From assembly GCA_963817525.1 (NCBI GenBank), contig CAWFOU010000008.1, positions 64,001-128,000 on the forward strand: a stretch of 64,000 nucleotides of DNA. The letters are read 5' to 3'. Under the pieces are notes generated by a model that was not told the origin of the DNA, did not search any database, and saw nothing but the letters and a program-made list of their open reading frames with translations. The translations under genes were made by a program, and so were the position numbers. Positions 4,168 to 20,718 of the stretch are shown piece by piece (position 1 is the stretch's first letter; each line of letters starts with the position of its first letter). The DNA is from an uncultured archaeon (GTDB lineage Archaea > Thermoproteota > Nitrososphaeria > Nitrososphaerales > Gagatemarchaeaceae).

Positions 4168-4186
4168 CCATAGAAGCGCCGCGGGG

Positions 4187-4609
4187 GTGCGCGCCCACTC
4201 CGCCGTCCACGTGCTCAAGGGCGCGGTCTCCAACGTGCTCGGCCCCAGGAAGTTCACGTTCGGGGAGGAGGGCGTCTTGAAGTTCCGCTCCGACGCCGAG
4301 CTCGGGCCCCAGGAGGTCGGGAAGATAGAGGCCGCGGCGAACAGGAAGATAGCGGAGGACGCGGAGGTGTCGGAGTTCAGCATGGAGAGGCAGGAGGCCG
4401 AGGGGCACTTCGGCTCCGGGATCTATGACCTCGCCCCCGCGCCGGAGACGGAGACGCTCCTCAGGATGGTGAGGATCCCCGACTGGGACGCGGGCTACTG
4501 CCTCCAGGCGCACGTCGAGAGCACGGGCTCCATAGGGGCGATAAGGGTGGACGGAGCGAGGTTCGACGAGGCGCGGAAGGAGGTGGAGCTCAGGTTCCAC
4601 CTTCTGTGA
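4187..4609 (+). CDS. AlaX-S-like alanyl-tRNA editing protein
   Basis: HSAVHVLKGAV (HxxxH) and CLQAHV (CxxxH) zinc motifs. GTG start chosen to avoid overlap with the upstream gene. Confidence 0.75.
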   Translation: MRAHSAVHVLKGAVSNVLGPRKFTFGEEGVLKFRSDAELGPQEVGKIEAAANRKIAEDAEVSEFSMERQEAEGHFGSGIYDLAPAPETETLLRMVRIPDWDAGYCLQAHVESTGSIGAIRVDGARFDEARKEVELRFHLL

Positions 4610-4665
4610 ACGGCCGCCCGGCGATAGCAAAACAGTATAATGGTGCTCAGAAGGCCCTTGGATTT

Positions 4666-4743
4666 GGGCCCGTAGCTCAGTATGGACAGAGCGAACGCCT
4701 CCTAAGCGTTAGGCCGAGGGTTCAAATCCCACCGGGCCCGCCA
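4666..4743 (+). tRNA. tRNA-Arg(CCT), CCA encoded
   Basis: Acceptor stem GGGCCCG/CGGGCCC, anticodon arm AACGC-CT-CCT-AA-GCGTT, T-loop GGTTCAAATCC; TATA-like GTATAA at about 4636. Confidence 0.97.
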
Positions 4744-5046
4744 AAGCTCAATTTAGACTCCGTTTCACCCAAATCCCCGTGACGATGGGCGTGTTCACCT
4801 CATATGCCTCAATTACGGGGTCTTTTGAATAATGCTCCAAGAAGCGTTTGTACTGATTGAACCTGCATGGAAGAATACGGTGGGCCCAGACTAAGATTGA
4901 TGCAGGCCGGAAGGGGTTTCATAGAAACCTAGCGTATCCTATCGAATTCAGTCACTCGAGTTTCAATAGGTACCGCGAGCCTATTTCCTTCGGCTCCGAT
5001 TGCCAAGCGGAGTTCACTCTAGGCGACTTGGCGTGGGCCGAAGTTC

Positions 5047-5649
5047 TCATCGAGGTTGCCTCTCCGTCTTACCTTTCGCCCATACGTATCTGAAGCTCAC
5101 GACGAAGTACAGGGGCATCGTTACGGCGATTGCGATCAGGTTCGAAATCGCGTAAGGGATAAGCAGGTCGGTCGTGGCAAGATAGAGAATCCCCAGATGC
5201 AAAGCGACGCCTGCCAGACCAAGGATGGTAGACTTTGCGAATCTCCCCGCTCTGCCACCTGATTGCCTGTCCCTGAATGTCCTGGAGTCGTTAAGAAGGA
5301 ACTTGGCGCCATGAACGGTAACGAGCGCTGTCGCGCTGGAGTAGAGGTAGTAAAGGCCGGCTGAGGTTAGGGCAACCAGCAACACCTCGTTGATGATGAA
5401 CCCGACCAACTCCGTGCGCATGTACATCCTGAAGCGAAGTCCATTTCCTACAGAGCCCGCTTGAAGGACCGAACCCGTCCGGGCGGTGGTGCGTGCCGGG
5501 GACGGCCCGCCCTGTTCGGGAGAGGGAACTGGTGGCTTCGGACTTCTCGCCGAGCGTTGGGTCCGCAGTCTCTGAGCAAACGCCCAGTATGCGACCCTCC
5601 CGACGAGGAGCGCCGCGGCCACCACGGCGATTATCTCGAAGGACAACAT
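5047..5649 (-). CDS. GtrA-like membrane protein
   Basis: N-terminal TM, then two GtrA-like hairpins, e.g. FAKSTILGLAGVALHLGIL...ISNLIAI...FRYVW. Confidence 0.6.
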   Translation of the reverse strand: MLSFEIIAVVAAALLVGRVAYWAFAQRLRTQRSARSPKPPVPSPEQGGPSPARTTARTGSVLQAGSVGNGLRFRMYMRTELVGFIINEVLLVALTSAGLYYLYSSATALVTVHGAKFLLNDSRTFRDRQSGGRAGRFAKSTILGLAGVALHLGILYLATTDLLIPYAISNLIAIAVTMPLYFVVSFRYVWAKGKTERQPR

Positions 5650-5658
5650 CTAGGCTCC

Positions 5659-6858
5659 CTACCGAATCTGTGTAGAATTGCGCCCGGGACCAGCCAGAGC
5701 TACGCCAGCCTTCCAAATCCCCCGGATGTTGCGCGTGCACGTTATGTCTGAGGTCGGGTCTCCCTCGACCAGGAGCATATCCGCTCGCAGCCCCGGTCGG
5801 AGACAACCCCTGTCGGGCATTCGGAACGCACGTGCGGGTGCGGAGGTCGCTGAGGTAAGCGCCTGCACAGGGGTCAAGCCCTCCTGGACGAGCAGTTCCA
5901 ACTCGCGATGAAGCGAAGAGCCCCGCGGCAGGCCCACGGGGAAGGGTGACGCGTCCGTCCCTGCCAGAACGGTCACACCCGCCTCGGCAATCAGTTTTAT
6001 GGCTTCGCTCATGCCCTTGCGCAGGTGGTTCAGCTCGGGTCTCGCCGGCCAGAGACGGAGCTTCTGCGGATCGATGAATGGTCTTAGGCGGTCGTCTGCC
6101 AGCATCGGCTCGACCTGAGGTTCGCCGACCTTGGTGTTGAGCAGGCAGACTAGCGTGGGAACTACCACGGTCCCGTGTTCGGCAAGAAAGCGTCCGAAGT
6201 CGGAGCCGGCCGAGTCGCCGGCGATTATGTGAGCCAGGCCGTCTGCTCCTGCCTCAACCGCTCGGCGCGCCTTTTCTTCCTGGAGCGCGTGAACCCAGAC
6301 TTGGATCCCGCGTGCGTGGGCGGCGCGGACAATCGCTTCGAGCGTGTCTTCGGTCAGAGACCCACCCTCGGGGGCGTCGTAGACCACCTTGATGAAGTCG
6401 GAGCCCTCTGCTAGGCGTTCGTTCACCCATGACTCCGCCCCTCCGGGACTGTCTACCGCTGGCATATCCTCTAGCCCGGGGAGTCTCTTCAGAATCGCAT
6501 CACTGGCCACTGCGGGCTGGCTGGCGCCGTATACGTCGGCCAAGTCAGAGCTCCGGGCTGCCAGTGACTTTAGGCCCTTCAGACCCTTCCCCGAGCAGCC
6601 CATGTCAATGACGGTCGCGATGCCCCATATGGCCGCTTCATGGAGGGAGTCGGGTCTCCCCAGAGCGTGAAAGTGCGCGTCGAACAGACCTGGGAGAAGG
6701 GTCATCCCCTCAGCATGGACGATGTCTGTACCGCCATGGACCTCAGGACCACTTCCCACCCCGACTATCCGCCCGTCTCTGACGACTACGCTGGCGTCCT
6801 CTAGGATGTTGACTCCGTCGAAGACCCTGGCGTGCTCGATGACCAGAGATTGCGCCAT
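5659..6858 (-). CDS. Amidohydrolase family protein
   Basis: LLPGLFDAHFH, GSDFIKV, VHA, LAH, AGTDA and G...G..ADMLLVEGDP motifs. Confidence 0.9.
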   Translation of the reverse strand: MAQSLVIEHARVFDGVNILEDASVVVRDGRIVGVGSGPEVHGGTDIVHAEGMTLLPGLFDAHFHALGRPDSLHEAAIWGIATVIDMGCSGKGLKGLKSLAARSSDLADVYGASQPAVASDAILKRLPGLEDMPAVDSPGGAESWVNERLAEGSDFIKVVYDAPEGGSLTEDTLEAIVRAAHARGIQVWVHALQEEKARRAVEAGADGLAHIIAGDSAGSDFGRFLAEHGTVVVPTLVCLLNTKVGEPQVEPMLADDRLRPFIDPQKLRLWPARPELNHLRKGMSEAIKLIAEAGVTVLAGTDASPFPVGLPRGSSLHRELELLVQEGLTPVQALTSATSAPARAFRMPDRGCLRPGLRADMLLVEGDPTSDITCTRNIRGIWKAGVALAGPGRNSTQIR

Positions 6859-6949
6859 ACGAGTTCAGACCCTGCCTTTTCCGTATTAGGCTAGTAGCGC
6901 TCTACCGCGCCTCTCCTGAGAACCTCTATAGGGTGCATGCTGAGCTTGC

Positions 6950-7612
6950 GTGACCATGCGAAGGCTGGTCGTCGAGCTACCGGTTGAGGACGTGATTGGG
7001 AAGGGCTCGCACTCGCCGATGGCGATGATAGACTCGGCGGAGGTAGTCCAGATTTTCAAGCAACGCAGGGGAGAGTTCGAGGGAATAGTGAAGGTGTCTT
7101 TCAAGACGCATCCTCCCCCGAAGCTCAAGGACTTGTTTCCTGGTGTCGAGGCGGAGGCCACGCTGCTCAACGAAAACGACGCGACCGGCGAGCGGGCCTA
7201 CTTCGTCAAGGTCAGGGTCGCGAACCCCAAGCGTCAAGTGTTTTCCTTGGGCGAGGTTTCAGGAGGCTACGTCGCGACTCCCTTTGAGATAAGAGGCGGG
7301 ATGATTAGACTCAACTTCATCGGCAGCGCCCTAGAAGTAAAGAGATTCATGAAGGTCATCGACAAGAAGTGGCCCCACTACAAGGTTGCCTCCCTCACGG
7401 ACGCGAGCTTTTCTCTCGACTCACCGTTGGGAGCTCTGACGGAGAAGCAACGCAGGGTTCTGGTGACGGCCTTCAACCTCGGCTACTACGACATGCCGAG
7501 GAAGGTCGACGGTGAGGAGCTCGCGAGGAGGCTCAACCTTGGGGCCTCCGCTCTGGTGGCGCACAGGAGGAAGGCCGAACGGAGGATTCTCGCGAAGATA
7601 ATCAATGGCTGA
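6950..7612 (+). CDS. Bacterio-opsin activator-type HTH regulator
   Basis: C-terminal LTEKQRRVL..AFNLGYYDMPRK...ELA..L...HRRKAE motif; divergent from the amidohydrolase. Confidence 0.88.
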   Translation: MTMRRLVVELPVEDVIGKGSHSPMAMIDSAEVVQIFKQRRGEFEGIVKVSFKTHPPPKLKDLFPGVEAEATLLNENDATGERAYFVKVRVANPKRQVFSLGEVSGGYVATPFEIRGGMIRLNFIGSALEVKRFMKVIDKKWPHYKVASLTDASFSLDSPLGALTEKQRRVLVTAFNLGYYDMPRKVDGEELARRLNLGASALVAHRRKAERRILAKIING

Positions 7613-7769
7613 GAATAGACGGGAGGCGGTCGGCCACGAATTGCATGAATCGGGCGCCGTTAAGTAATCGGAGCTGGAAATGAGCTAAAATGGGGCCGGA
7701 AGGGATTCTAAACATTACCGACCAGAGGTTTGTGAATCCTTATAGGTAAGAAATTTACTACACCGGAGC

Positions 7770-8033
7770 ATGACTGAAGCATCGGAGCTTCGCACGGTCA
7801 CCGTATCCGAAAAGGGCCAGGTGGCCATCCCTGTCGACATCAGGAGGAGGCTGAACATTCGAAAGGGCCAGACGCTGGTGCTTCAAGTCAGCGACGATAA
7901 GCTGCTGATCGCCAAGTCGGAGGAGGTCTCGAAGAAGATGAGGGACGAGTTTGAGCATCTTCTCAGACTCTCAGAGAGAAGCGCGAAGGAGTTATGGGAG
8001 AACGAGAAGGATGCAGTCTGGGACAGCGCTTGA
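7770..8033 (+). CDS. AbrB/MazE-family antitoxin
   Basis: VSEKGQVAIPVDIRRRLNI.KG motif; overlaps the toxin gene. Confidence 0.88.
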   Translation: MTEASELRTVTVSEKGQVAIPVDIRRRLNIRKGQTLVLQVSDDKLLIAKSEEVSKKMRDEFEHLLRLSERSAKELWENEKDAVWDSA

Positions 8034-8361
8034 GCCGGGGCAGGTGGTGTTGGTGCCCTTCCCATTCACCGACCTATCTGAAGTGAAACGTCGTCCGGTG
8101 CTGGTCCTCTCGAATCGGCGTCACAACAGCAGTTCTCGGGACTTCATCTGCTGTGGGATAACTTCGAACCTGGCAAACAGTCGGAACTCTGTCCTGATAG
8201 ACCCAATGGAGATGGCCGAAGGTTCAATTCCCGTGCAGAGTAGGATCAAGTTCGACAAGGTCTTCACCTTGGAGGGGAGTCTAGTAGTCAAGGCTCTCGG
8301 AAGGGTCTCGAAACACAAGCTAGCCACGGTCAAGCGGGGATTGATTTCTCTTCTTGGTTAG
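8011..8361 (+). CDS. mazF: PemK/MazF-family toxin
   Basis: GQVVLVPFPFTD...KRRPVLVLSN and ITSN motifs. Confidence 0.9.
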   Translation: MQSGTALEPGQVVLVPFPFTDLSEVKRRPVLVLSNRRHNSSSRDFICCGITSNLANSRNSVLIDPMEMAEGSIPVQSRIKFDKVFTLEGSLVVKALGRVSKHKLATVKRGLISLLG

Positions 8362-8493
8362 CATCATAACGGTTACAAAATTCGAACCACACCAACTGGG
8401 GCAGCAGTCTTCAACACATGGCCGATTTTATCCCAAGAGTAATTTCTCCATTATGCAACTTAGAGATTTGGCAGGCTTTCTGGATCGAACGTT

Positions 8494-8582
8494 CGAATCT
8501 ACGGGGGCTCGAACGCTCGGCCCGAGGCACGCGAGCCCGAAAAATGACCGAGGACGGCCACCGAGTCCCACCGGGCCCGCCA
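8494..8582 (+). repeat. Right-end motif plus tRNA-Arg 3' end copy 1 (att-like)
   Basis: 17-nt exact tRNA end at 8566-8582; the preceding 69 nt match 13301-13369 at 58/69 positions. Confidence 0.9.
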
Positions 8583-9084
8583 TCTTTTCACGCTCAACCA
8601 GTTTGTGAAGAGCCGAATTCTTGCCTGGGCCCGCTTAAATTATTAAGCGAATCCTGCGAAATGCGGTCTAGAGATTTTGAACTGTGCGCCCGCGGGATGC
8701 CTGCGACTATCTTCCCCAATTCAACCTCCTCTCAAGACGGTTCAACTGGGATCACAGCTACTGGTGGCCTTTTTCCACAAAGCGTCATCCTGCGAATATA
8801 GTCTTGATGGACTGTCGATTCATGCTTTTTTACCCGTGGCAACCTTGACAGCGGTTGCCACGGAGGAAACACCCTGAACCTGTTGGAGTTTATGAAAGCA
8901 TGACCCTTCAGGGTCCCTCCGCCCCAAAGTAGGACGGGACGGCGGTTTGGGTCCTACCCAAGAGAACGGGGACGGTCGGCGCTGCTGAGACCGAGCCACC
9001 GCCACCGAACAGACCGAGCACCCGTTCCATAGAATAGGTTGATATTGCCCTGCGGCTTTCGTTGGACCATCGGATGGATATGTC

Positions 9085-10272
9085 TTGGCTGCCACTGGAA
9101 GGGCCGCTGTCTTCGTCTCTGCGCTCATCCTCCTGGCCGCGGTAGGGACCGGATTCTACTTTACCCAGACCCTCAACTCCTCTCAGACTGGGACCACCCC
9201 GAGCACAGAGTTTACGCAGACGGGAGTCGTCTCCTCGACCGAGGTCACCAACGCGTCGTTGGGCCTCCGGCTATCTCTCTCGGTAAACGCCACCGTCATC
9301 CCCAGCGAGGACGTGATTGAGATCAACGCCTCCGTGGTCAACACGAGGACGACGGCGAGCAACTTCACGGCGTCCGATGACTGGGCGGCCCCGGGGTTGA
9401 CGGAGGGAGCGTGCAACTATGGCAACGCCACCAACAAGCTGTTCGATCCAATCGGATTGGACGTCTTCAGGGGGGACTACGGGATGGACAACCTTTCGAG
9501 CGCAGGGCAGCCCATAGATTGGTGGCCATTGGTGGAGTGCCCCGCCGACGGGGTCTCGGTAGGGACGCAGTATCTCCCGCTGGAGAACATCACGAGCTAT
9601 TCTCTCCTCCCCGGGAACGACAGCGGAACTTATGCGGGCTACTACGTCGCCTCTACCACCTCCCCGCCCCCCGTGTGTGGGGGCGGGGTCTGCACGTACA
9701 GCCCCAACGTCACGAGGACGTACGCAAAGGGGGTCTTCCCCACGAGGATGGCCTTTGAGCAGACGATAAACGCGGCCAACGGGACGGAGGGCTTCTACAG
9801 CTCGCTGGGCTCGTCCCTCCCTGCGAACTACACCCTGGTTGCGGGCGACGAGTGGGGCCAGCTGACCTTCATCCACTTCCAGGTAGTGGCATCCAACAGC
9901 ATCCCCAAGGTGGGGAGCTTCCTCGCATGGGGAGGGTGCGCGGATTCGTACCGTTTGAATGGGACGGCGTATGCAGAGCCGTGCACGGCCTCGGAGCTAA
10001 GTGGCGCCCACGTCTTCGACTGCGCCAGCGCGGCCGCTTCGCAGGCCGGATGCTCGGTCACGCTCGTCGGTTCGGGCACCTTCCCCGGGTCAGGCCAGGT
10101 CAACTCACCGATCCTGAACAACACGTTAACGGTCTGGTTCCCTTACACCGGTGGGGCTGCCCAGCCCGCTGGGACGAACTGCTACTTCCAAGTGGCGCAC
10201 CACTACACGGGCTCTCCCTACGGGCACTGCTACGCGCTCAACTCGACGGCCTTTGTGATTGGGATGTATTGA
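9085..10272 (+). CDS. Secreted or membrane-anchored Cys-rich glycoprotein, unknown function
   Basis: N-terminal TM, many N-x-S/T sequons, paired cysteines, YTLVAGDEWGQ motif. Confidence 0.75.
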   Translation: MAATGRAAVFVSALILLAAVGTGFYFTQTLNSSQTGTTPSTEFTQTGVVSSTEVTNASLGLRLSLSVNATVIPSEDVIEINASVVNTRTTASNFTASDDWAAPGLTEGACNYGNATNKLFDPIGLDVFRGDYGMDNLSSAGQPIDWWPLVECPADGVSVGTQYLPLENITSYSLLPGNDSGTYAGYYVASTTSPPPVCGGGVCTYSPNVTRTYAKGVFPTRMAFEQTINAANGTEGFYSSLGSSLPANYTLVAGDEWGQLTFIHFQVVASNSIPKVGSFLAWGGCADSYRLNGTAYAEPCTASELSGAHVFDCASAAASQAGCSVTLVGSGTFPGSGQVNSPILNNTLTVWFPYTGGAAQPAGTNCYFQVAHHYTGSPYGHCYALNSTAFVIGMY

Positions 10273-10337
10273 ATTTAAATCAAGAGCTCGGGTTTATCCC
10301 ACCGCCCGCGGCTTCTGACCGCAGGATACGGGTTTCT

Positions 10338-10718
10338 TTGGAAGTTCGAGAGACGAATAGGTCATTGCTTTTTTCGGGTTCATTACTAATCGCTTTCAAC
10401 GTGGTGGTGAACATTCTGGACTTGACAACGACGTTCATTGGTTTCAGAAGAGGCTTGCTCGAACAGAATTTCGAGGCTTCGTTCCTGATGAAAGTTGTTG
10501 GCAACGAGTATCTCGGGGCCATAATCCTAAAGGTGTTATTCTTCTCTTTCTTTGGTCTTGCCTATTATTCCATGAGAGGATTTGAGAAGAAGGATGAACG
10601 GAGACGCGGAGTTGTTTTTGGACTGTTGTTTCTTGACTTCGCGTTGATTTTTACCGCGTTGTGGGTAACTGAGATAGTCGTGGGCAACCTCATCGCTCTA
10701 GGGGTCATTGGCGCTTAG
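10338..10718 (+). CDS. Small membrane protein (DUF5658-like)
   Basis: NILDLTTT...GLLEQN motif followed by TM helices; TTG start. Confidence 0.65.
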   Translation: MEVRETNRSLLFSGSLLIAFNVVVNILDLTTTFIGFRRGLLEQNFEASFLMKVVGNEYLGAIILKVLFFSFFGLAYYSMRGFEKKDERRRGVVFGLLFLDFALIFTALWVTEIVVGNLIALGVIGA

Positions 10719-10729
10719 ATTGAGTTTGC

Positions 10730-11035
10730 TTAAACCGGATGGGGCCGTTCATCCTGTTCCCCCCTTTCTTTGGTGGGAGGGTGGACTTGGAGGCTTGCTT
10801 GAAGCTTCTTCACCGCGGCAATCATGTCCCTGAATGAAAGAGACTCTCCACGGCATAGGAGAACCCACTTGTCTTGGAGGAAAATTCGAAAGTAGTCGGC
10901 CTGAATTAGCGAACGTTGAATGTCCAACTGGTAGGAGTATGTCAGGACCGAGTCAATCAGTATGTTGCCTCTTGGCCTGGCGAAGAACCAATCATCCAAT
11001 TCTTCGTCGTAATGCTCGAATTGATTCCTGAGCAT
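10730..11035 (-). CDS. Hypothetical protein
   Basis: Protein-like ORF filling the gap between two genes; no recognised motif. Confidence 0.35.
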   Translation of the reverse strand: MLRNQFEHYDEELDDWFFARPRGNILIDSVLTYSYQLDIQRSLIQADYFRIFLQDKWVLLCRGESLSFRDMIAAVKKLQASLQVHPPTKERGEQDERPHPV

Positions 11036-11050
11036 GCGATTCCACAGTGA

Positions 11051-11861
11051 GTGAGCGACGACATGCGACCTGAGGAACAAGAGAAGTGGAAGCGAAAAAG
11101 GTTGGGTCGAGCTGCCGACGTGCGGCAGAAGTCTCGCAGCGGACTTTCGCACGTCGCTGTAGCGTTTTTCGCAGTTCTACTTGTCGGGGCAGTTGCGGCT
11201 GGACTGTACCCTACTGGAGTCGCATCCCCCTCCGCAGCCGCTTCGTCCACAAGTTCCTCTACCGGCTTCATCCATACGACTTCGTCCGTAAGCAATGGCT
11301 CAACCACAACCATCGTCGGAGGCAGCGGGGATTCGGGAGAAATAGGTCCCCCTCCTATCATCACGATATTGTTTGGAGCACCCACGATCGACCACCCAAC
11401 GACCACAGCAGTCCCCGCTGACACCATGCTCTGGACCAGCTGGACGCTGAACAGCACCATGACCATAGACGGAGTCCAGTCCGACATCGAGGCTCTACCG
11501 AGCAGTTGGGGCTCTAACCTGATGATAGCCGTCTACGTCGACGGCAAGCTCGCTGGCAACAGCACATACGTAATCGCTCCCAATTACGGCGGTCTCGACA
11601 CGGCGATAATAGACGCACCTGAAAATAATGCGATCCAAGGCGGAATCATGGGAAACGCTGCCCAGCCTGCGGGCGCGGGTAATCTCGATGGCAATCCTCT
11701 CCAATGCATCGGTCGACCCACACTTGAACAGCGGTTCGGTCCCCACTTACGAGGTCACGCTACCTCCTGGCTCTGGGTTCCCTGCTCAGCTGCCTACTCC
11801 GACCACGACGCTTTCCGATTCGGCTGTGGAGATATGGGCGTTCGATGAAACACAGCAGTGA
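11051..11861 (+). pseudogene. Membrane-anchored surface protein with apparent frameshift near 11677
   Basis: TM plus Ser/Thr linker. After QPAGA the natural-looking continuation (VISMAILSNASVDPHLNSGSVPTYEVTLP) is in the frame of ORF 11628-11861. Confidence 0.55.
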
Positions 11862-11943
11862 ACTACAATGGTGACGCTCGACCGGGAAGCTTGCCCGACA
11901 CGCGTAGCCGACCGTCGTTGGTCCGACCGGAACTTGGCTGGGT

Positions 11944-12013
11944 TCGCTTAATATTCTAAGCGACTCCCACCGGGCCCGCCATCATTACTTGCCTAGTGTC
12001 GGATTCGAACTTC
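11944..12013 (+). repeat. tRNA-Arg 3' end copy 2 with upstream hairpin and left-end motif
   Basis: TCGCTTA-6nt-TAAGCGA hairpin, core at 11965-11981, CCTAGTGTCGGATTCGAACTTC at 11992-12013. Confidence 0.9.
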
Positions 12014-12301
12014 GCTGCTGATGCCATCGACCGACGCAGGGGTGTCTCGCGTATTCCTATACATTGGTTGTGCGGATTAGTCTGCCAGGATTCGGGCTTG
12101 GCCTAAATGACTCGCCGAGCCGCGTCGTGCCTGCCGATCCCGCGCGACACCCCACTACTTCCCCCTTGTCGCAATCTAGAAGGGGACGGCCACGTCCCCA
12201 GGGCGGTCGCCCTTCCCGTATCCGGTTTGCTCCGGGATAGCTGCTTTGTCAAGGAACACAGACCTCAGGCCTCAAACCCCTTGGGCCAGCACTACAACCT
12301 G

Positions 12302-12541
12302 ATGGACGATCAGGAACTCAAGGAACTGGAGGCGCGGCGCAGAGTCCGGTATCTCTGGGACGAGGTCGTCCACCTGAGGCGCGTCGCCGAGAACCGCCGC
12401 CGGATCCTCGACCTGACGCGGACCCTGTCGGACTACGACCCCGCGGTCGAAAAGGCGGAGCTCGAGCAGGCGGAGCGCCAACAGGCCTGCGCCTGGATCC
12501 AATATCTTGACCTCAACAGGAAGGTCTACATCTCAACCTGA
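12302..12541 (+). CDS. Small helical hypothetical protein
   Basis: 79-aa ORF from ATG with GC3-rich codons; charged and helical. Confidence 0.55.
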   Translation: MDDQELKELEARRRVRYLWDEVVHLRRVAENRRRILDLTRTLSDYDPAVEKAELEQAERQQACAWIQYLDLNRKVYIST

Positions 12542-12590
12542 CATGAAGGCCAATATCCGTAAATTGAGCCCACTCCCCAAATCCTAAAGG

Positions 12591-13169
12591 ATGAACGTGC
12601 GAGAACGCGAGAGCGTCTTCATCGGTGTGGGCGCCGGCCTGATGTTGATTGTCCTCCTCGTCCTGCAATCCTCCATCGGCAGCGGTCTTCTCAGCACGAG
12701 GACAGTGACTACGACCGCAACGGTGACGACGGAATTACCGGCTGGAGACTACAACCTAGTCGCCAGTGCCTATACAAATCATCTCTCAGTACTCGGCTCC
12801 AAGAACGTATCCGCGCTCCTAGGTGGGTATGAGAACAACTCGACGGTCGAGTGGACGGGAGAGGCGGCGGGACAGCAGGGAAACTATACTGGGGAAGGCA
12901 TTGGTAGACTGCTTACTACCTTCCTACGGTATATGACTAATTTTACCTTGTCAAACGAGACCCAGCCATTAGTGGGCGTTCAGGGAAGATATTGGGTCGT
13001 CAACTCGACTTTTCACTGGGCTGGATATAGCACCGTCGACGGCATCCTAACCGGAACGGTAGCTGCTGAGGATTCGTACGTCCATGTGGGCAATACATGG
13101 TTGATTGCAAGAGAGACGTGGACGTGGCTTTTATTCACCTGTCAATATCCAGATTGTTTTGGCATATGA
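12591..13169 (+). CDS. Membrane-anchored NTF2/SnoaL-like fold protein
   Basis: N-terminal TM and Thr linker; NVSALLGGY...YTG...WLIARETW pattern. Confidence 0.65.
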   Translation: MNVRERESVFIGVGAGLMLIVLLVLQSSIGSGLLSTRTVTTTATVTTELPAGDYNLVASAYTNHLSVLGSKNVSALLGGYENNSTVEWTGEAAGQQGNYTGEGIGRLLTTFLRYMTNFTLSNETQPLVGVQGRYWVVNSTFHWAGYSTVDGILTGTVAAEDSYVHVGNTWLIARETWTWLLFTCQYPDCFGI

Positions 13170-13300
13170 CCGGGAGGCTTATCATGGAAGTTCGGCTATT
13201 TCCTGTCGCAGAAGACGTGGGATCCCACGTGGTTTTTGGCATTCCCCCGCCAGCAGTTCTGAAATGGTTTCGCGAGCCCGGTACTCGATTGGCAGATTGA

Positions 13301-13420
13301 CGAATCTAGCGGGGCTCGAACCCTCGGCCTATGGCATGCGAGCCCGAAAAACGACGGAGGCCGGGCACCAATCCCACCGGGCCCGCCACCAATCCATACC
13401 TAGTGCCGGGTTCGAACTTC
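13301..13420 (+). repeat. Right-end motif, tRNA-Arg 3' end copy 3 and left-end motif
   Basis: Core at 13372-13388 (19-nt match counting the preceding AA). CCTAGTGCCGGGTTCGAACTTC at 13399-13420 is 20/22 identical to 11992-12013. Confidence 0.9.
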
Positions 13421-13481
13421 TTGAGCAGGCTACAGGAAATTTGACATGATTCATATTCATGCACTATCGGACGTTTGAGAG

Positions 13482-14189
13482 TTGGAACCTGAGAGGCCCG
13501 CCGAAGAAACCCCTTACGGGGACCGGCTGATCGACGTCATCAAATCCGCGGAGTGCGATCGGATAGGAGTCATCCTCAGACACTCCGTGAGGGAACAAGG
13601 TCGGAGAGGCGAGGTCGCAAATCCGAATATGGTCGCTGGGTTGATCCCTCACGGGCACAGCGAGTCGAAGAGGTTTGGCGAGTCGCTCCCTGCAGGCTTC
13701 AACCTCGTCGTTGGCTACAGTCCCGTCCCTCGCTGCGTAGAGACGGCCACCGGCATAATGCACGGCTACTCGCACGTGGACTCTGGCAGCATATCAGACG
13801 TCGGAATTGACGATTCCTTGGCCGTGACCCACTTTTTCGCCAAGGACACAAGTGCGATGGAGTCGTATAGGGGAAAGGTGGGAGGACTGCCCTTCCTCAG
13901 AGAATGGCTGGACGGGAGCCTCCCTGTGGGGATGATGAGGCTCCCTTCGGAGGTGAAGCAGTTCGCTGTGAGCAGCGTCATCAGGGACTTGAAGGCAGGT
14001 CGGGCCCCGCTGCTGCGGTTATGGGTAGGGCACGACTACGGGCTGATAGTCCTGATCGAGACGATCTTTGGCGGACGATTCAAGGAAACCAGGTGGATAC
14101 CGTACCTGGACGGCATAGTGTTTTGCCTGAGCAGAGGGGGATTGCTCACCGCAGCCTGGGACGGCGAGATTGTAAGGCTAGAAGCTTGA
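13482..14189 (+). CDS. Histidine phosphatase superfamily protein
   Basis: LRHS, SP..RCVETA and VGHD motifs. Confidence 0.85.
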   Translation: MEPERPAEETPYGDRLIDVIKSAECDRIGVILRHSVREQGRRGEVANPNMVAGLIPHGHSESKRFGESLPAGFNLVVGYSPVPRCVETATGIMHGYSHVDSGSISDVGIDDSLAVTHFFAKDTSAMESYRGKVGGLPFLREWLDGSLPVGMMRLPSEVKQFAVSSVIRDLKAGRAPLLRLWVGHDYGLIVLIETIFGGRFKETRWIPYLDGIVFCLSRGGLLTAAWDGEIVRLEA

Positions 14190-14232
14190 ATCCGACTGCT
14201 TCGGAACGCGTCTTCGAGAGCCGTCGTCACCC

Positions 14233-14745
14233 CTAGCCGGACTTGACTATGACTGTCGCTGACATCCACGAGTGATATTCGCAGTAGTAGTCGTAGGTGC
14301 CGGGCGACGAGAAGGTGAAGGTGTAGGTCCCCCCGGGGACCAGGTTTCCGGAACTTACACTCCCGTTCCCGGACACCGAGGTGACTGTGTGGGCCACGGT
14401 GTCGTCGTTGGTCCAGACGACGGTGTTGTTCACCCCGATCACCACCGTGACCTTGTCCGGCGCGTAGCCCGGCGCGGCGCTTGGGCCTGTTGATGCCCCC
14501 TTGGGGATCTCGACGCTCGTCGCTACTGGGCTGGGAGAGGCTGACGACGCCGAACTTGTGGCCGTGCTGGAGCCTGAAGAGGCCAGCGAGGTCGAGGTGG
14601 TGCTCGGCAAGGGGGTGACTACTGTGAACGGCCCGGACGTGAATGCCAAGTACGTGACCCCGGCCATGACCAAGAGGATTACTACAAACGCCAACAGGAA
14701 GCCGCCGTAGTCGCCAAAAGCCGCCCTTCCTCTCCGGCCACGGAG
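14233..14745 (-). CDS. Membrane-anchored cupredoxin (plastocyanin-like); start uncertain
   Basis: Type-1 Cu ligands in HTVT and YYCEYHSWM; N-terminal TM and Ser/Thr linker. Confidence 0.88.
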   Translation of the reverse strand, partial: LRGRRGRAAFGDYGGFLLAFVVILLVMAGVTYLAFTSGPFTVVTPLPSTTSTSLASSGSSTATSSASSASPSPVATSVEIPKGASTGPSAAPGYAPDKVTVVIGVNNTVVWTNDDTVAHTVTSVSGNGSVSSGNLVPGGTYTFTFSSPGTYDYYCEYHSWMSATVIVKSG

Positions 14746-14979
14746 GGTCGTCGGGCTCTTATTTCCACGGTAGCCCCGGCACGAACTCGCCGGAAAGCTT
14801 CTGGGAATCTTGGCCAGTGGTGGGACGCATCTGCCACCATCTTGCTCTTTCGCGGTCGGAGACACGACGCTATGCCACCCTCGTCGAGAGGGGCGGCGAC
14901 GCTGTCGATTTAAGCGTTCAAGGGGCACGGCGGGGCCGCCTGGCGTTTCGCGACCAAGCCGCATCCGGACGAGGCTGCG

Positions 14980-16404
14980 CTATGGATCGGGCTCGACGCC
15001 ATCCTCGCGGAGGGGAGCATCGTTCGTGGTGGCTTTCTGAGCAATTGCTTCCTTTTCGCCGGGTGGTTCTGATGGATCCGCGCCTCGACCCCTCCTAAGG
15101 TTCGTGATCGAGAGCGACCCTGGGATCTTGTTCCAGAGTAGGAACTTGGCCTCCCAGAGCGACCGGATGACGCCGATCCAGAACACTATGCTCGAGGGGG
15201 TGTTGTCGGTCAGCACGGAGCTGACGCTCTGCGCCCCATAGGGGACGGGGGCGGCGACGGCCACGATAGACGCGTGGTGGAAGAGGTCGTAGTAGCTGAT
15301 TCCAAAGGGGAGGAGGACCTCGGAGACGCCCAGGATTATTATCAGGGTGTTCAGACTGTCGAAGCAGAGGAACTCCCAGTAGCTGTCGCTCACAGGCAGG
15401 AGGACGAAGAAGGGCAGCAGAAGCAGGCTTAGTTGCGGCGGGGAGATGTAGGTCGCGAAGACGTATCCGAACGTCGCGACGAAGGCGAAGACGAGGGGGT
15501 CGCTGGTTGTCCTCCGAAGCCTCATCCACAGCATCCCGGCCAAGAAGGCGGAGAAGACGGCTATGGGGACCACGTGGCGGTATGGTGAGTAGGGGTTGAG
15601 GAGGATCGCACCCATCCAGGAGTCCTCGATGTTCCAGTTGTAGAGGTACTGCCAAGACTGAAACCAGAGGTTCGAGTTGAGGAGCAGGAACGGCGCGTTG
15701 ATGAGGGCGTAGGTCCCCCCGCCCGCGGCCGCCAAGACTACCATCTCCTTCTTCGTCCTCTCCGCGAAGAGGAGGCCGACCGCGGGGACGGCGGTGATGA
15801 AGTTCGTCGCGGCGGAGAGACCGAAGAGCACGCCCGCCCAGAACCGGCTCCCGCCTCTGAGATACAGGCGGATGGCGGCCAGCGTGAAGTAGAGGCCTAT
15901 GATGTACCAGTTCAGGAGGGTCATGATGACGAAGGTCGGGGTTACGACGAAGTACCAGAACATCCTGGCCCGGGATGTCCCCCTCATCTCCGCGAGGCCG
16001 ATCAGCTCCCTGAGGGAGAGGAAGGTCGGGACTGCCAGGACGGCCGAGCTGACGAGGTACGTGTTCCTGAGGAGCTCCCCAGGGAGGAGGGCGGCCAGCC
16101 TCCCCATGGTGTAGAAGAACATCGAGGTCAGGACCGGATATTCGCTGAAGGACTGTATGTAGGGGATGGTGAACTTGCACGGCGCGATGAGAGGGCCGTA
16201 CTCCGACGGCGGCAGGATCTGGCATACCCTCTCCTGGAATAGGTAGGTGAGGCTGGTGTAGACGTTCCCGCCCCCGTAGGGGAGGTGGAGCCAGACGCCG
16301 AAGAGGTAGAGGGCCGCCGCGGTGCAGTAGAGGACTCGCTTGTATCGTCGGTCAGACAGAGCGGCTAGGCGGTCGCTGAGACGGATCTTCCCAACACCTG
16401 TCAT
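14980..16404 (-). CDS. Polytopic membrane protein, GT87/GT-C-like glycosyltransferase
   Basis: EYPVLT motif, about 10 TM helices, PPQ motif near the C-terminus. Confidence 0.7.
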   Translation of the reverse strand: MTGVGKIRLSDRLAALSDRRYKRVLYCTAAALYLFGVWLHLPYGGGNVYTSLTYLFQERVCQILPPSEYGPLIAPCKFTIPYIQSFSEYPVLTSMFFYTMGRLAALLPGELLRNTYLVSSAVLAVPTFLSLRELIGLAEMRGTSRARMFWYFVVTPTFVIMTLLNWYIIGLYFTLAAIRLYLRGGSRFWAGVLFGLSAATNFITAVPAVGLLFAERTKKEMVVLAAAGGGTYALINAPFLLLNSNLWFQSWQYLYNWNIEDSWMGAILLNPYSPYRHVVPIAVFSAFLAGMLWMRLRRTTSDPLVFAFVATFGYVFATYISPPQLSLLLLPFFVLLPVSDSYWEFLCFDSLNTLIIILGVSEVLLPFGISYYDLFHHASIVAVAAPVPYGAQSVSSVLTDNTPSSIVFWIGVIRSLWEAKFLLWNKIPGSLSITNLRRGRGADPSEPPGEKEAIAQKATTNDAPLREDGVEPDP

Positions 16405-16621
16405 GCAAGGCGCTTCTCTTCGAGAAGAATTTTCGCGACGCGACTATATCTGTTTGCCTTCCGCTTCGACGGCGGGCGCCGGTGGAGGCGCGAGCCTCGG
16501 GCTCAGCTGTCGTCGCCGGACTGGCTCTTCTTCTCAGCCCAGCGCTTGGCGATTTCGACTTCAGGGGGCATCTCCCTGGACGTCGCGACGCTCCCGAGGT
16601 AGACGTCGCCAGTGTTCCCGT

Positions 16622-16924
16622 CTATGGAGATGCGGTCCCCCTCGTGGTCTTCTTCAGGACGTAGTCAAAGAACCGATCCGTCGTCCCATCGTCTGAAGTC
16701 CATTCGGCGCGCAGCCTGGTCCTCTTTTCCACCCTCCTGAGCGTCGACAGGAGGGTCCGGTTCAAGTCCTTCGCGCTCTCGCCCTCCATTTCCGCCTCGA
16801 CGATGAACTCGCCGTTCACCTCCTTCACGGAGCCCTTCGCAATCGCTCCCTGCAGGGCGGGCTTCACCGCCTTCGGGCTGGCGCTGCTTACCCGAGCCAC
16901 CAGCTTGAAGCGCCTGTTTGCCAT
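16622..16924 (-). CDS. Small hypothetical protein
   Basis: Clean 100-aa ORF with host-like codon usage. Confidence 0.65.
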   Translation of the reverse strand: MANRRFKLVARVSSASPKAVKPALQGAIAKGSVKEVNGEFIVEAEMEGESAKDLNRTLLSTLRRVEKRTRLRAEWTSDDGTTDRFFDYVLKKTTRGTASP

Positions 16925-16999
16925 GGCAGCGGCGAGGGAGCGCTGGCTAGAAAGGCTTCGCCCCAGGGTGAGCCCGGAATCGCCCCGTCGTGGAGGGCT

Positions 17000-18811
17000 C
17001 TACTGGGACTGGCCGGAGGTGATCAAGAAGGTGAAGTGGAACGAGGGCATGAAAGCGGGATGATCCTGCGGAGTCAGCACAGGGAACCTGTACTCCACGA
17101 CCTGCTGGGCGGTGAACTGCGAGCCACCCCACCACACGGAGGGGTAGACGTCGATGGTGTGTATCCCCGGCCCCCCGGTGGCCACTATGTCGATGGTCAC
17201 GTTGCCTCCGCTGTTGAACCCGCAGCCGTACCCGATGTAGGAGTTGTCATAGTCGGCGGCGACGATGTTGGTGTTGAAGGTGTAGCCGACGCCTTGCATA
17301 ATCACCTGGATCATCGTGCCCTGTGGCCCCTCGGTCGTGCTGAGCTTGGCGCTACGCTGGATGAAGACAGTTCCGTTCGAGTTCTCCGTAAGGTTGCCCG
17401 CGGCGATGTAGTGGATGCCTCCGAGGTCGGAGTGGACTTTCATGATGAAGGAGAACGTCCCGTCCGATGCAGCGGTGACGTTCCTGAGCGGTTCGGCGAC
17501 TGCCTTGTAGCCCAGAAGGTTGCTTCCCTTGTATGTGGTCCAGACCAAGGGAACCTGCGTGTTAGGTGTGAAGCCAGCCCCGCTCACGGTGATGTTGTCC
17601 CCGACGCTGACTATGGTGGGCGAGACGCTGATGCGAGGACCCGTAGTGGCAGTGTTCACGGGAACGGTGATCTGCGGCCTTACGACCGTGGCCACCGGAG
17701 TGAAGGAAACCTCCGGCCCGGTGGATGTCGCGGACGTCGAGCTCGAGGTTGTCGAGGCTTTGGTCGAGGTGGCCGCGTAGAGCCCGATTCCTGCTATCGC
17801 CACGACCAAGATGATGACGACCGCGATCACGACACGCGATATCGCCCTACGCTCACCGGGGTCTTTCCTTGAGACGAAGAACGCGCCGCCCACAAGCGCG
17901 GCCAGCAGCGCGAAGGCGCCAAATGAGGCGGCGTTGTGAGAGACGAATGCGTCGTTGGTGGACTGTGAGGACGATTGGGTCATGACAGTCTCAGGCGTCA
18001 CAGTGAAGTTCGCGTAGAAGGGAACGTAGGGAGGGAAGACGGATTGGGTCTCGGACGACGGCGGGCCCTGCTGAGGGTTCAGATATCCTGGACCCGGGTA
18101 GCCTTGGTAGATTGCTATGTAGTGTATCCCTGGCACTCCCGAAGCATAGATCGTGAAGTTCGTCGCACCGGACGTCGAGAGAGCGGTCATGTATCCGGCT
18201 ATCGAGTTGTCCCAGGAGAGGTAGTAGCTCGTCGAGTACTCCCCGTACCCTAGGCCGGCGGCTATGAAGGTGATCGGTGTACCGTCAGGTCCACTGCTGG
18301 GCGAAAAGTGGAACGAAGGCTCCACGTCGAAGCTCGCCTTGGCAGCAAAGGCGGTCCCGTTGGCAAAGAACGCCTGGATGAAGTGAGAGCCTCCATAATC
18401 AGTCGGGACGGTTATCTGGACAGAAAACGAGCCGCTCGAATTGGTCTGGACAGAACCCAGCATCACCTGGATGGCCGGAGTGCTGATGCCTGTGACCTGT
18501 GGCGTGGGGATGGCTTGGACTACCCAACTGGCCTTCGCGGAGGCCCATTCGAGGTTGAGGCTTGTGTTGGGCGGGAATCCGGTCCCCGCGACGGTCATCT
18601 TCGCACCGACAGTGGCCGCGGTTGGAGAGACTGTTATCGAAGACGATGCGGTCGCCGCGCTCGCCGAACTTGCGAACAGAAAGACGCACAGCAAAACTGC
18701 GGTCCCCGCCATGAAGACGCTCACTGCCTTCGGCTTCCATGAAGGCCACCTCGAAGATTTCATCGCGATGGAAGCGGTTTTGGCTACTATAAATGCCCCC
18801 TCAATTCTCAA
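17000..18811 (-). CDS. Surface protein with internally duplicated beta-rich halves separated by a TM hairpin
   Basis: Signal peptide; repeated motifs in both halves (VSPT..VG...TV.G.GF.PNT, D.GG.H.I, DNS..GY, G.PGIH.I..Y); two central TM helices. Confidence 0.85.
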   Translation of the reverse strand: MRIEGAFIVAKTASIAMKSSRWPSWKPKAVSVFMAGTAVLLCVFLFASSASAATASSSITVSPTAATVGAKMTVAGTGFPPNTSLNLEWASAKASWVVQAIPTPQVTGISTPAIQVMLGSVQTNSSGSFSVQITVPTDYGGSHFIQAFFANGTAFAAKASFDVEPSFHFSPSSGPDGTPITFIAAGLGYGEYSTSYYLSWDNSIAGYMTALSTSGATNFTIYASGVPGIHYIAIYQGYPGPGYLNPQQGPPSSETQSVFPPYVPFYANFTVTPETVMTQSSSQSTNDAFVSHNAASFGAFALLAALVGGAFFVSRKDPGERRAISRVVIAVVIILVVAIAGIGLYAATSTKASTTSSSTSATSTGPEVSFTPVATVVRPQITVPVNTATTGPRISVSPTIVSVGDNITVSGAGFTPNTQVPLVWTTYKGSNLLGYKAVAEPLRNVTAASDGTFSFIMKVHSDLGGIHYIAAGNLTENSNGTVFIQRSAKLSTTEGPQGTMIQVIMQGVGYTFNTNIVAADYDNSYIGYGCGFNSGGNVTIDIVATGGPGIHTIDVYPSVWWGGSQFTAQQVVEYRFPVLTPQDHPAFMPSFHFTFLITSGQSQ

Positions 18812-18883
18812 GAATGAGAATCGTCCCCGGAAGTCGCAGGCAGCCCCCGCGTCCTGCGGAAGGGAAATTGCCCCCCCTAGAAG

Positions 18884-19165
18884 CTATACAGCGAACCCCG
18901 CCACGACAAGCGCAATCAGCACGCAGGACCCGACGAGCAGCGGAATCCTGCGCAGGGGGTCTCCCGTCTTGGTGACCCTGTAGATGTAGGATATCATGGC
19001 GAACGCGATCAGGTCGACCGAAAGGTAGACCGCGAACACTGATTCGCCCGAGGACAGCGAGGTGTCTATCGTCCAGAGCACGAACGCCGAGGCGAACGCG
19101 ACTATTACGAGCAGGGTGACGACCTGGACGCCCAGCATATCGTCCGTCTCTGTCACTGTCTCCAT
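18884..19165 (-). CDS. Small 3-TM membrane protein coupled to cytochrome b
   Basis: ATG overlaps the end of the cytochrome b gene; hydrophobic. Confidence 0.7.
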   Translation of the reverse strand: METVTETDDMLGVQVVTLLVIVAFASAFVLWTIDTSLSSGESVFAVYLSVDLIAFAMISYIYRVTKTGDPLRRIPLLVGSCVLIALVVAGFAV

Positions 19166-20718
19166 CCCACCTCGAGCGCCCTCACTCGCCTCTTTATCAT
19201 GCCGGTGCCAAGGTCTAGGCGATAGAGGAGGTAGACCGTGCCAGCCACGGCTACCGAGAGTCCTAGTAACGACAGCGCGAGCGACCAAAGGAGAGAGAGG
19301 CTGCTCCCCTGCATTATGAGCTGTCCTGCTCCGGTTATGGCGCCGCTGATGCCGAACGTCCCCAGGACCAGCAGACAAACGAAGCTGGATGCGGTCCATA
19401 GCGACGCGGTGTTGAAAGACCTAGTCGCGTAGGGGGCGCCGCCAGCCGCAGGAGGTTGCGCACCCGAGGGGTTGGTTCCGACCGGCATCTTCCGGAAGAT
19501 CAGCTTGTAAGCTCCGGCCGAGACGAACGCCACTATGATTGCGGTCCCGCCCAGCACCAAAACGCCCTGCTCCGTCGGGATGATCTGCCCAGGAGTCAAG
19601 CGTCCCCAGACAGTGAGCACGGCAACCTCGGCCACGAAGATTAGGCCGACCGTAACCCAGTTCCTCCTCGCCTCGATTCGGCGCGTCTTCCCCCTGTCCA
19701 GGAACGGGAGGAGGATCAGGGCCACGAATATGACGGATACGAGGCCGAGGGCGACCGAGAGCCCCGGCCCCTCGAAGACGTCGAACTTCAGGATCTGGTA
19801 GATCCACAGGAAGTACCAATCCGGCTGGGAAGCGTATTGTGCGGCGAGCGTGGGCGTGTATTCGGGCGCCAGGCTGAGCGGGAAGGCGAGAGAGATGAGC
19901 ATCATCGCAGCGCCGAAAAGCGCGGCGAGCTCGAGGAGGTAGATTGTGAGGTCGGGGAAGATCGGGATGAGCTTGCTCTTCTTCGCAGGCAAGGGCATCG
20001 GGCCGGCGACGGGCTCGGAGACGCCGTTGGCCTCGAGCATGTACATCTTCCCGAAGAGAAGGAGGAGCAGGACGCCCGGGAGGACGACAACGTGGAGGTC
20101 GTAGAAGCGCAGGATGGTGCCCGTATCCGTCCCGCTGCCTACGACCAGGAATTGGATCCAGCCAGACAGAGGCTGGGGCAGCGCCGACATCATCCCTATC
20201 CCCACGTCGGTCGCAGACTTTGATACGACCGTCCATGGGAGAAGGTAGCCCGTGAAGCCGAAGCCCAGCGTCACGAAGCCCATGAACATCCCCGTTATCC
20301 ACATCAGCTCTCTCGGCTTCTTGTTGACGGAGACGAAGTATCCCCTCATCATGTGCATGAATGCCAGCATTATCATAGCGTAGGCCGTGTAGAGGTGTAC
20401 GGTCTCGAGGAATCTGCCGTAGCTGACGTTCTGGAAGATGTAGAGGGTCGAGGAGTATGCTTGCAGGGGCGTGGGGATGTAGTAGATCATCATTATCGCC
20501 CCCGTGACTCCCTGGATTGCGAAGGCGACGACGGCAAGAGCGCCGAGCCAGTAGAAGGGGTTGACCGAGTACGTCGGCGCCGGTCGCAAGAGCTCGTACG
20601 AGAGACCCAGCCGGGCGTCGAACCAATGGACGACCCGGGCCAGGGCGCGTTCATGGGCCGGCGCCTCCCCGGAGGGATGGTAGCCGCTATTTGCCTTTTC
20701 GTCTTCTTGCTCTGACAT
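19153..20718 (-). CDS. Cytochrome b of a Rieske/cytb complex (SoxN/SoxC-like, extra C-terminal TMs)
   Basis: Heme ligands HLYTAYAMIMLAFMHM and LHVV, FTGYLLPW, Qo motif PDWY. The second helix-D His appears to be replaced (GKMYM). Confidence 0.93.
   Translation of the reverse strand: MSEQEDEKANSGYHPSGEAPAHERALARVVHWFDARLGLSYELLRPAPTYSVNPFYWLGALAVVAFAIQGVTGAIMMIYYIPTPLQAYSSTLYIFQNVSYGRFLETVHLYTAYAMIMLAFMHMMRGYFVSVNKKPRELMWITGMFMGFVTLGFGFTGYLLPWTVVSKSATDVGIGMMSALPQPLSGWIQFLVVGSGTDTGTILRFYDLHVVVLPGVLLLLLFGKMYMLEANGVSEPVAGPMPLPAKKSKLIPIFPDLTIYLLELAALFGAAMMLISLAFPLSLAPEYTPTLAAQYASQPDWYFLWIYQILKFDVFEGPGLSVALGLVSVIFVALILLPFLDRGKTRRIEARRNWVTVGLIFVAEVAVLTVWGRLTPGQIIPTEQGVLVLGGTAIIVAFVSAGAYKLIFRKMPVGTNPSGAQPPAAGGAPYATRSFNTASLWTASSFVCLLVLGTFGISGAITGAGQLIMQGSSLSLLWSLALSLLGLSVAVAGTVYLLYRLDLGTGMIKRRVRALEVGWRQ

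Follow-up and report, generated by a model that had tools for sequence, protein, structure and literature searches.

In a 64,000-nucleotide stretch of DNA from an uncultured archaeon of the family Gagatemarchaeaceae, order Nitrososphaerales (assembly GCA_963817525.1, contig CAWFOU010000008.1, positions 64,001 to 128,000; hereafter the window), we find a tandem, nested pile of integrase-less cassettes, three plus a truncated fourth, joined at exact copies of the 3' end of a tRNA-Arg(CCT) gene (Table 1). The right ends of cassettes A and C are formed by copies of a conserved module of ~190 nt, of which an earlier note on this DNA had recognized 84 nt, and each copy contains a short segment in which the variable loop and T-stem of the tRNA recur in inverted orientation. 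We hold at about even the proposition that this segment is a putative protein-binding arm of the attachment (att) region, copying the half-site of the target.

The exact reverse complementarity between 14 nt of the end of cassette C and the tRNA, reported in the earlier note, was borne out. When the end was aligned locally to the reverse-complemented tRNA, its score exceeded those of all 300 shuffles, and complementarity at 75% continues over 32 nt. A search of the window for the 14-mer at ≤2 mismatches recovered three matches where 0.73 were expected; two are exact, namely the tRNA itself and the segment. The exact inverted match is beyond chance and the feature is real. Its paralogue at the end of cassette A (GAACGCTCGGCCCG) is indeed the diverged version that the note took it for (11/14), with an alignment score equalled by 10 of 300 shuffles. 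The note was also correct that att duplication gives direct copies: the direct copies here are the 17-nt att cores, and the inverted piece belongs to the arm as a feature of its own. Compared with the tRNA over 15 copies, the 14-mer agrees at 14/14 once (copy C of the window), at 12/14 in two, at 11/14 in eight and at 10/14 in four, and the family consensus fits at 10 to 12 of 14, so that copy C alone is perfect. This copy departs from the consensus by three clustered changes; because two of them happen to make the match and one opposes it, its last two matching bases probably reflect chance and not conversion, and its 14/14 would then be a coincidence on top of the family consensus.

The joint beside which the segment lies is defined by the 17-nt core TCCCACCGGGCCCGCCA, present in four exact copies in the window against 0.06 expected. 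Three had been counted in the earlier note; with the fourth, at 11965-11981, there are three cassettes and not two, and the inserted DNA is bounded by direct repeats of the tRNA 3' end. The flanks of the tRNA differ among eight relatives. Metagenome contig L112 is 98% identical to the sister genome G022 over a stretch that begins 5' of the tRNA and takes in the first cassette with its module, and the two diverge exactly after the core; this break marks the core as the joint and places one integrase-less cassette in two arrays. An A-type left end of ~100 nt is conserved 3' of the core in the window, in G031, in G017 (twice) and in L107 and L109, and together with the module it encloses cargo as different as 3.8 kb in the window, 1.05 kb in the second sister genome, G017, and ~0.85 kb in L109. 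These are thus att-bounded cassettes without a recombinase, having the same ends around different cargo. Over positions 4400-14600, single contigs assembled from four DNA runs of one study (depth ~2-6) span the junctions of the tRNA with A, of A with B, of B with C and of C with the flank; no rearranged joints were seen in these runs, whose uncovered parts say nothing. GC content at third codon positions is 0.50-0.83 in the open reading frames (ORFs) of the array versus 0.86-0.91 in the flanking genes.

We collected 13 distinct copies of the module (alignment A1), two from the window, two from the sister genomes and nine from metagenome contigs. In BLAST searches of the family's 97 genomes, long matches were confined to the window's own genome (two copies), G022 and G017, all beside the orthologous tRNA-Arg(CCT); among 401 genomes of the order, the module was found in the same three and, weakly, in a fourth. 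Pattern scanning of metagenome contigs returned 14 loci with 13 true copies, nhmmer recovered from the own genome the two window copies only, and the module pattern had no match among viral contigs that might have pointed to a free viral or plasmid form. Two bacterial matches from the genome contig scan (L095 and L098) and one from the metagenome scan (L111) were set aside as chance (nhmmer E = 0.07-0.8). On L109, a second, diverged copy bounds the ~0.85-kb cassette. Upstream of the module, most copies have unrelated sequences, and the core follows directly 3' in 11 of the 13 distinct copies, L102 and L103 being without a core at this place. Just 3' of the module, L102 and L105 have CTTGAACCCTCGATC, another inverted T-arm-like piece, instead of the core, and a variant core ~100 nt further on, an arrangement that is possibly an inversion or a different joint.

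From 5' to 3', the module is composed of a weakly conserved part that includes a TTTTTAT box; a degenerate copy of the tRNA in direct orientation, running from variable loop to discriminator base; immediately after this direct arm, the inverted variable loop, T-stem 5' half and first T-loop bases (CCCTCGGCC); the highly conserved stretch GGCAyGCGAGCCCGAAAAAyGACsGAGG; and a variable linker, which leads into the core. The consensus of the conserved block reads GGGCTCGAACsCTCGnCCCGAGG...GAAAAAyGACsGAGG. Column identity is 0.96 in the 5' arm of the GGGCTCG stem, 0.87 in the inverted 14-mer and 0.93 in the next 29 nt, compared with 0.80 in the direct arm, 0.50-0.54 in the 5' part and 0.69 in the linker; 38 columns are invariant, the A5 tract among them. 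On average, the inverted arm fits the tRNA at 11.8/14 versus 9.8/14 for the direct arm, and the two arms are complementary to each other at 10.6/14. The module also contains a short perfect palindrome, CCTCGnCCCGAGG, and in eight of 13 copies CCGAG/CTCGG recurs three to four times, which was equalled by ≤12 of 1000 shuffles. Neither ARAGORN nor Rfam called a tRNA or tRNA pseudogene in the module on either strand, and the idea of a minus-strand tRNA in the end was discarded for this reason.

Comparable units occur at other types of tRNA sequence. A scan of the 97 family genomes with the pattern CGAAT-N11-CGAACNCNNGNCC returned 13 matches in 11 genomes and none in reversed-pattern controls. In each unit, an inverted piece of the T-stem 5' half and variable loop comes immediately after a 3' piece of a tRNA, which is made up of the 3' halves of T-loop and T-stem and the acceptor 3' strand. 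The 3' piece is of the tRNA-Ile type in six units, of which four have CCCTT in the inverted piece (CCCTTGGCC being the Ile-type counterpart of the inverted arm); the inverted block of the G060 unit is the reverse complement of that genome's own tRNA-Ile(GAT) at 14/14, and that of the G034 unit fits at 13/14. The earlier note had suggested asking whether the inverted segment co-varies with the adjacent tRNA at other loci: the Ile-type fits are suggestive of this, in a sample that is small, mixed and not phylogenetically independent. In the own genome, a strict search for 13-nt T-arm-like palindromes at ≤1 mismatch gave none, versus one in the reversed control. Gene-free runs of three to four short units, each a tRNA-3'-like piece plus an inverted T-stem piece, were seen at ~9660-10000 of L058 (G084) and at the end of L059 (G060); they resemble stacked empty cassettes.

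No integrase is encoded in the array. None of the genome's six PF00589 matches lies there, the nearest being ~45 kb upstream on the same contig and outside the window, and window positions 1-20000 gave no tblastn match to the G031 integrase or to 10 long ORFs taken from the six PF00589 loci. The integrase in question is a 429-aa ORF in the array of G031 at the same tRNA, which has a 91% identical copy in the own genome (G000 C7:691916-693205 = L118:1517-2806), a 60% identical relative in G022 that starts ~60 nt after the module and core, and a distant relative on L108 just after module and core. It has 1903 homologues under the NCBI name 'site-specific integrase [Nitrososphaerota archaeon]' and aligns to a PF00589-positive ORF of the own genome at 26.5% identity over 407 residues (E = 1e-38); searches of Pfam, NCBIfam and PDB gave it no match. 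Both the G031 copy and the C7 copy are preceded by a tRNA-Ile-like 3' fragment and then a promoter-like TTAAGAGAATCC box. The C7 ORF is not beside an intact tRNA, and several further paralogues are found on C7 and C1.

Judged from these sequence comparisons, a recombinase or accessory-protein site that mimics the tRNA half-site, one of two possibilities raised in the earlier note, is the best-supported reading of the inverted segment: the arm lies in the best-kept block of a module adjoining the joint, the tRNA is copied in both direct and inverted orientation, and there are the Ile-type units. The segment would be the inverted arm of a tRNA-derived imperfect palindrome within the ~190-bp right-end module of small integrative cassettes, which would enter the final 17 nt of tRNA-Arg(CCT) through site-specific recombination in soil archaea of the Nitrososphaerales type. 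The module would serve as an arm of the att region, its inverted arm, direct arm, CCTCGnCCCGAGG palindrome, CCGAG motifs and A5 tract being candidate protein sites at which an integrase, a directionality factor or both may bind and bend the DNA. Such sites would have originated by copying the half-site recognized by the enzyme within the tRNA gene (GGCCGAGGG, variable loop plus T-stem 5' half), and mobility of the cassettes would be supplied in trans, from an integrase gene located elsewhere. If the block is a target-copied binding site, it offers a concrete and testable way into the question of how thaumarchaeal integrases whose att cores span just 17 bp locate their tRNA, and it would help explain how integrase-less cassettes with toxin-antitoxin genes, regulators and enzymes pile up and are reshuffled behind tRNA genes of uncultured soil archaea. 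A bolder version, which we consider improbable as it stands, casts the inverted block as a rewritable address label, i.e., a palindromized T-arm half-site of whichever tRNA is targeted (Arg in genus g1, Ile in other genera), that lets integrase-less cassettes be captured and stacked in trans into integron-like, tRNA-anchored arrays in soil Nitrososphaerales.

Several observations weigh against reading the segment as a target-copied protein site. The match of the segment to its target is not specific, since it fits other T-arms as well, among them that of tRNA-Ile(GAT); what it resembles is a common T-arm sequence and not uniquely the target tRNA. In copy C, which has the perfect 14-mer, the 5' half is decayed, the direct arm fits the tRNA at only 4/14 and three CCGAG motifs are lost, and this copy may be inactive. 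An intact tRNA precedes the unit in none of 10 cases at the other tRNA types, the G084a unit fits its tRNA-Ile at only 10/14, and the two CCCAC units are split, one having the CCCTC of tRNA-Arg(CCT) and the other not fitting. The integrase-bearing G031 element and cassette B use the same core without the module, and therefore the module is not required by every element at the site. The 91% identical integrase copy in the own genome, a mere candidate for the enzyme that would act in trans on the cassettes, is preceded by a tRNA-Ile-like and not the Arg core. The palindrome has arms of 13-14 bp around a spacer of 12-14 bp, and the 6-8-bp overlap of classic tyrosine-recombinase cores is narrower than this spacer. 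Finally, the source is a metagenome-assembled genome with 8.75% contamination.

The main rival, possible though somewhat doubtful in our estimate, is that the end is a relic without present function, namely a decaying, displaced tRNA 3' half plus the stub of an old element end, which looks conserved because its copies are young. Consistent with this, the 5' half of the module is a direct degenerate copy of tRNA positions 45-75, whose fit to the direct arm stood above shuffles in six of 12 copies tested (≤5 of 500 shuffles; 0/500 in three copies and 2-5/500 in three more), and in G022 the alignment to the tRNA reaches back to about position 21. An internal core-like stretch, CTAnnGGGGCTCG, is highly variable, copy C and G017 have broken arms and stems, gene-free arrays of short tRNA-3'-like units exist in G084 and G060, and the loci are accretions with deletions, as witnessed by the truncated fourth cassette and the nested insertion in cassette A. 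The decay is, however, very uneven, with identities of 0.87-0.96 in the inverted-arm block and the next 29 nt versus 0.5-0.7 in neighboring parts of the module, and the sequence just 5' of the module is unrelated between copies; selection on the block therefore fits better than uniform youth, and the relic reading is weakened by this unevenness. Were it nonetheless a relic, the locus would still illustrate clearly how insertions accumulate, nest and decay at a tRNA hot spot in archaea. Quite unlikely, we think, is a cis-regulatory or insulating element, which might be the operator of an element-encoded regulator or a pair of transcription stops (T5 on the + strand at the start of the module and T5 on the - strand at GAAAAA) shielding the joint or neighboring genes. 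Conserved features include the TTTTTAT box, ~170 nt before the core, and the invariant A5/T5 tract; CCTCGnCCCGAGG, short and perfectly palindromic, is of the sort typical of dimeric DNA-binding proteins, and toxin-antitoxin genes lie directly 5' of the module in copy A and in G017; the upstream genes nevertheless vary between copies, while adjacency to the core is kept in 11 of the 13.

That the end works as single-strand structure or guide, folding as DNA or RNA or giving an RNA whose pairing with the tRNA gene would select the target, is very unlikely in our view. Folded single-strand recombination sites are known, as in integron attC and the folded attP of phage CTX, and the arms here can pair, with 77.7% of cells paired in helix 101-110/131-140 and 94.5% in the GGGCTCG/CGAGCCC helix. 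There are a few double changes (one C:G to G:C in two copies and one G:C to T:A in one copy), the diverged second copy of L109 keeps the stem only via G-T pairs, and in other genera some units have an inverted block that suits their tRNA type. The hairpin that the earlier note described as conserved in both window copies is present in each as an inverted repeat enclosing most of the segment; its fold is unremarkable, with single-stranded DNA folding z scores of +0.35, +0.46, +0.19 and -0.10 for the two copies on both strands. With both stems (direct/inverted arm and GGGCTCG/CGAGCCC) written as a pseudoknot, 84.6% of cells pair, a value equalled by 124 of 500 shuffles, and the covariance check proposed in that note gave no covariation beyond shuffles (0.054 versus 0.043, equalled by 109 of 500). 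RNAalifold returned a 7-bp stem plus three inner pairs with a covariation term of +0.5, and G017 breaks the stem at two positions without compensation. In Rfam searches only the tRNA scored above threshold, with no other match at E ≤ 10 in window 4000-14500 or at E ≤ 1 in four further loci. Tyrosine-type integrases accompany the family, and no IS110-type enzyme was matched in the scanned ORFs (sets of 10, 10 and 8). The guide-like end suggested in the earlier note found no support, as copies drift to 10-12/14 and those at tRNA-Arg(CCT) do not track the one tRNA difference seen (G017); a guide role for the inverted segment is unlikely. Because there is no Rfam hit, covariation, fold stability or codon periodicity, what is conserved is the sequence itself and not a structure.

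Two coding possibilities were also rejected. One frame of the module is open in all copies, with an upstream ATG in frame in five of 13; mean entropy at codon positions 1-3 is 0.32, 0.46 and 0.47 (columns 101-172), with no third-position excess, and a module-encoded small protein was discarded. A split integrase of the SSV type running through the core was likewise dropped, the open frame being out of frame with the start of the G022 integrase (worked out by hand); in A-type junctions this frame ends soon after the core.

The array belongs to a known kind, the att regions of tRNA-targeting integrative elements together with integrase-less satellites. In the excerpted text of a survey of thaumarchaeal integrated elements, att sites have a median length of 17 bp and tandem arrays occur (Krupovic et al. 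2019, PMC6563490). Insertion into a tRNA gene, a short att (17 bp here), re-use of one site for arrays and membership in the same phylum are points of likeness; no end module of ~190 bp or inverted tRNA-like arm is described in those excerpts, and the present cassettes differ in lacking an integrase and in their small size (0.85-3.8 kb) (PMC6563490). Archaeal att sites need nucleotides outside the stretch common to attB and attP, and the complex attP of lambdoid phages has arms with several sites for Int, Xis and bending proteins (PMC8371274). The module shares with such an attP a short identical core plus a long conserved arm (~190 bp here, ~240 bp in lambda), repeated short motifs and a bend-prone A tract (PMC8371274). 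The arm here repeats a stretch of the target tRNA in both orientations. The arm sites of lambda differ in sequence from its core sites, and we know of no copying of the target gene in them. Neither an inverted T-arm copy in the att arm of an archaeal element nor this particular module came up in a narrow full-text literature search, a result that does not amount to saying that none has been published.

Other recombination systems resemble the array in part. The cis-mobilizable elements beside streptococcal integrative and conjugative elements, and mobilizable genomic islands, are integrase-less, att bounded and moved in trans; the present cassettes are likewise att flanked, have no recombinase of their own, are stacked with integrase-bearing relatives and include one found in two array contexts, with the difference that their own mobility in trans is a prediction. 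Integron gene cassettes carry attC sites, and the likeness here lies in an array of small cassettes that end in an imperfect palindrome at the joint and have toxin-antitoxin cargo. Unlike an integron, the array has no integron integrase or attI beside it (with no PF00589 match in the array), the end is conserved in sequence and not in fold (38 invariant columns, no covariation), and the cassettes are multigene, lie in both orientations and are anchored on a tRNA gene. Elements of the IS110/IS1111 group use bridge or seek RNAs, and an element end with target-complementary sequence is common to both; the scanned ORFs include no such enzyme, no signal of a structured RNA was seen, and among copies at one tRNA the complementarity fails to follow the target.

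Table 1. Features of the tRNA-Arg(CCT) array (window coordinates).
Feature	Position	Strand	Basis or remark
tRNA-Arg(CCT), integration target and sole tRNA of the window	4666-4743	+	ARAGORN; Rfam tRNA, 63.9 bits; orthologues in 8 relatives
tRNA stretch mirrored by the inverted segment (variable loop, T-stem 5' half, first T-loop bases)	4710-4723	+	
att core copy 1, tRNA 3' end, TCCCACCGGGCCCGCCA (17 nt)	4727-4743	+	
Cassette A, composite, no integrase	4744-8565	.	Pfam; left end comparison
Left direct repeat of nested insertion, GGCCGGAAGGGGTT, reverse complement of a tRNA-Ile/Ala-like 3' end	4905-4918	+	empty site in G017
Right direct repeat of nested insertion, GGCCGGAAGGGATT	7694-7707	+	empty site in G017
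MazE-like antitoxin, directly 5' of module copy A	7770-8033		Pfam
PemK/MazF-like toxin, directly 5' of module copy A	7951-8361		Pfam
Module copy A, right end of cassette A	8405-8565	+	nhmmer E = 3e-28
Direct tRNA-like arm within copy A	8483-8496		
Inverted arm within copy A	~8509-8522		
14-mer of the earlier note within copy A	8511-8524		
att core copy 2	8566-8582	+	exact-match count
Cassette B, no integrase, B-type right end	8583-11964	.	
att core copy 3	11965-11981	+	exact-match count
Cassette C, closed by module copy C	11982-13371	.	two small ORFs of no known family (12107-12541, 12591-13169)
Module copy C	13216-13371	+	nhmmer E = 9e-21
GGGCTCG...CGAGCCC inverted repeat around most of the inverted segment	13312-13345 (arms 13312-13318 / 13339-13345)	+	
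Inverted copy of tRNA 4710-4723, GAACCCTCGGCCTA	13318-13331	-	14/14
att core copy 4	13372-13388	+	exact-match count
Fourth-cassette remnant, ORF 13482-14189 (235 aa)	13389-14197	+	common to G031, 85.5% aa identity

Cassette A consists, from left to right, of the A-type left end (~4744-4850), the nested insertion, the MazE/MazF pair and the module. The insertion (4919-7693, 2.79 kb) has no integrase, encodes a GtrA-like protein, an amidohydrolase and an HTH_10 regulator (Pfam) and is flanked by direct repeats of 13-14 nt, with G017 providing the empty site. As it sits at tRNA-Ile/Ala-like repeats and its empty site is preserved, tRNA-like fragments within elements seem to act as secondary landing sites. 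The remainder of the cassette, i.e., its ends and the MazE/MazF pair, is 80.5% identical over 899 nt to the 1.05-kb cassette of G017, in which a homologous MazE/MazF-type pair is present; on L109, by our reading of that contig, an AbrB-like plus PIN-like pair lies 3' of the second core.

In cassette B, a palindrome, CGCTTAA..TTAAGCG, is found at 8632-8660, ~50 nt inside the left end, and again at 11934-11962, directly before the core. It is similar to the anticodon-stem 3' half of the tRNA and to a TTAAGCGAATCC box that precedes integrase genes in G022 and G031. B-type ends, with a palindrome differing from that of the module, also stand beside a core of the same kind in G085 and G089; palindromes adjoining the core are a recurring theme, and the module is not obligatory. 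The fourth cassette is closed by a further core copy in G031; in the window, homology ends right after the ORF and the right end is missing. Within this ORF, positions 13928-13989 have a sub-threshold likeness to the C/D-box small RNA family sR7 (16.5 bits versus a gathering threshold of 37, E = 4.8), which is probably chance. An empty site was also sought by synteny in G020 and G034, whose tRNA-adjoining genes match only paralogues in the window, and synteny did not place the far boundary of the array.

The T-stem of the target tRNA, GAGGG/CCCAC, has one non-standard pair that is marked by the Rfam tRNA model. This A-A mismatch (window 4714-4736) recurs in G020, G034, G031, G022, G017 and G033; fully paired T-stems are found instead in G001 (GTGGG/CCCAC) and G015 (GAGAG/CTCTC). 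An integrating element may have supplied the T-stem 3' half of tRNA-Arg(CCT).

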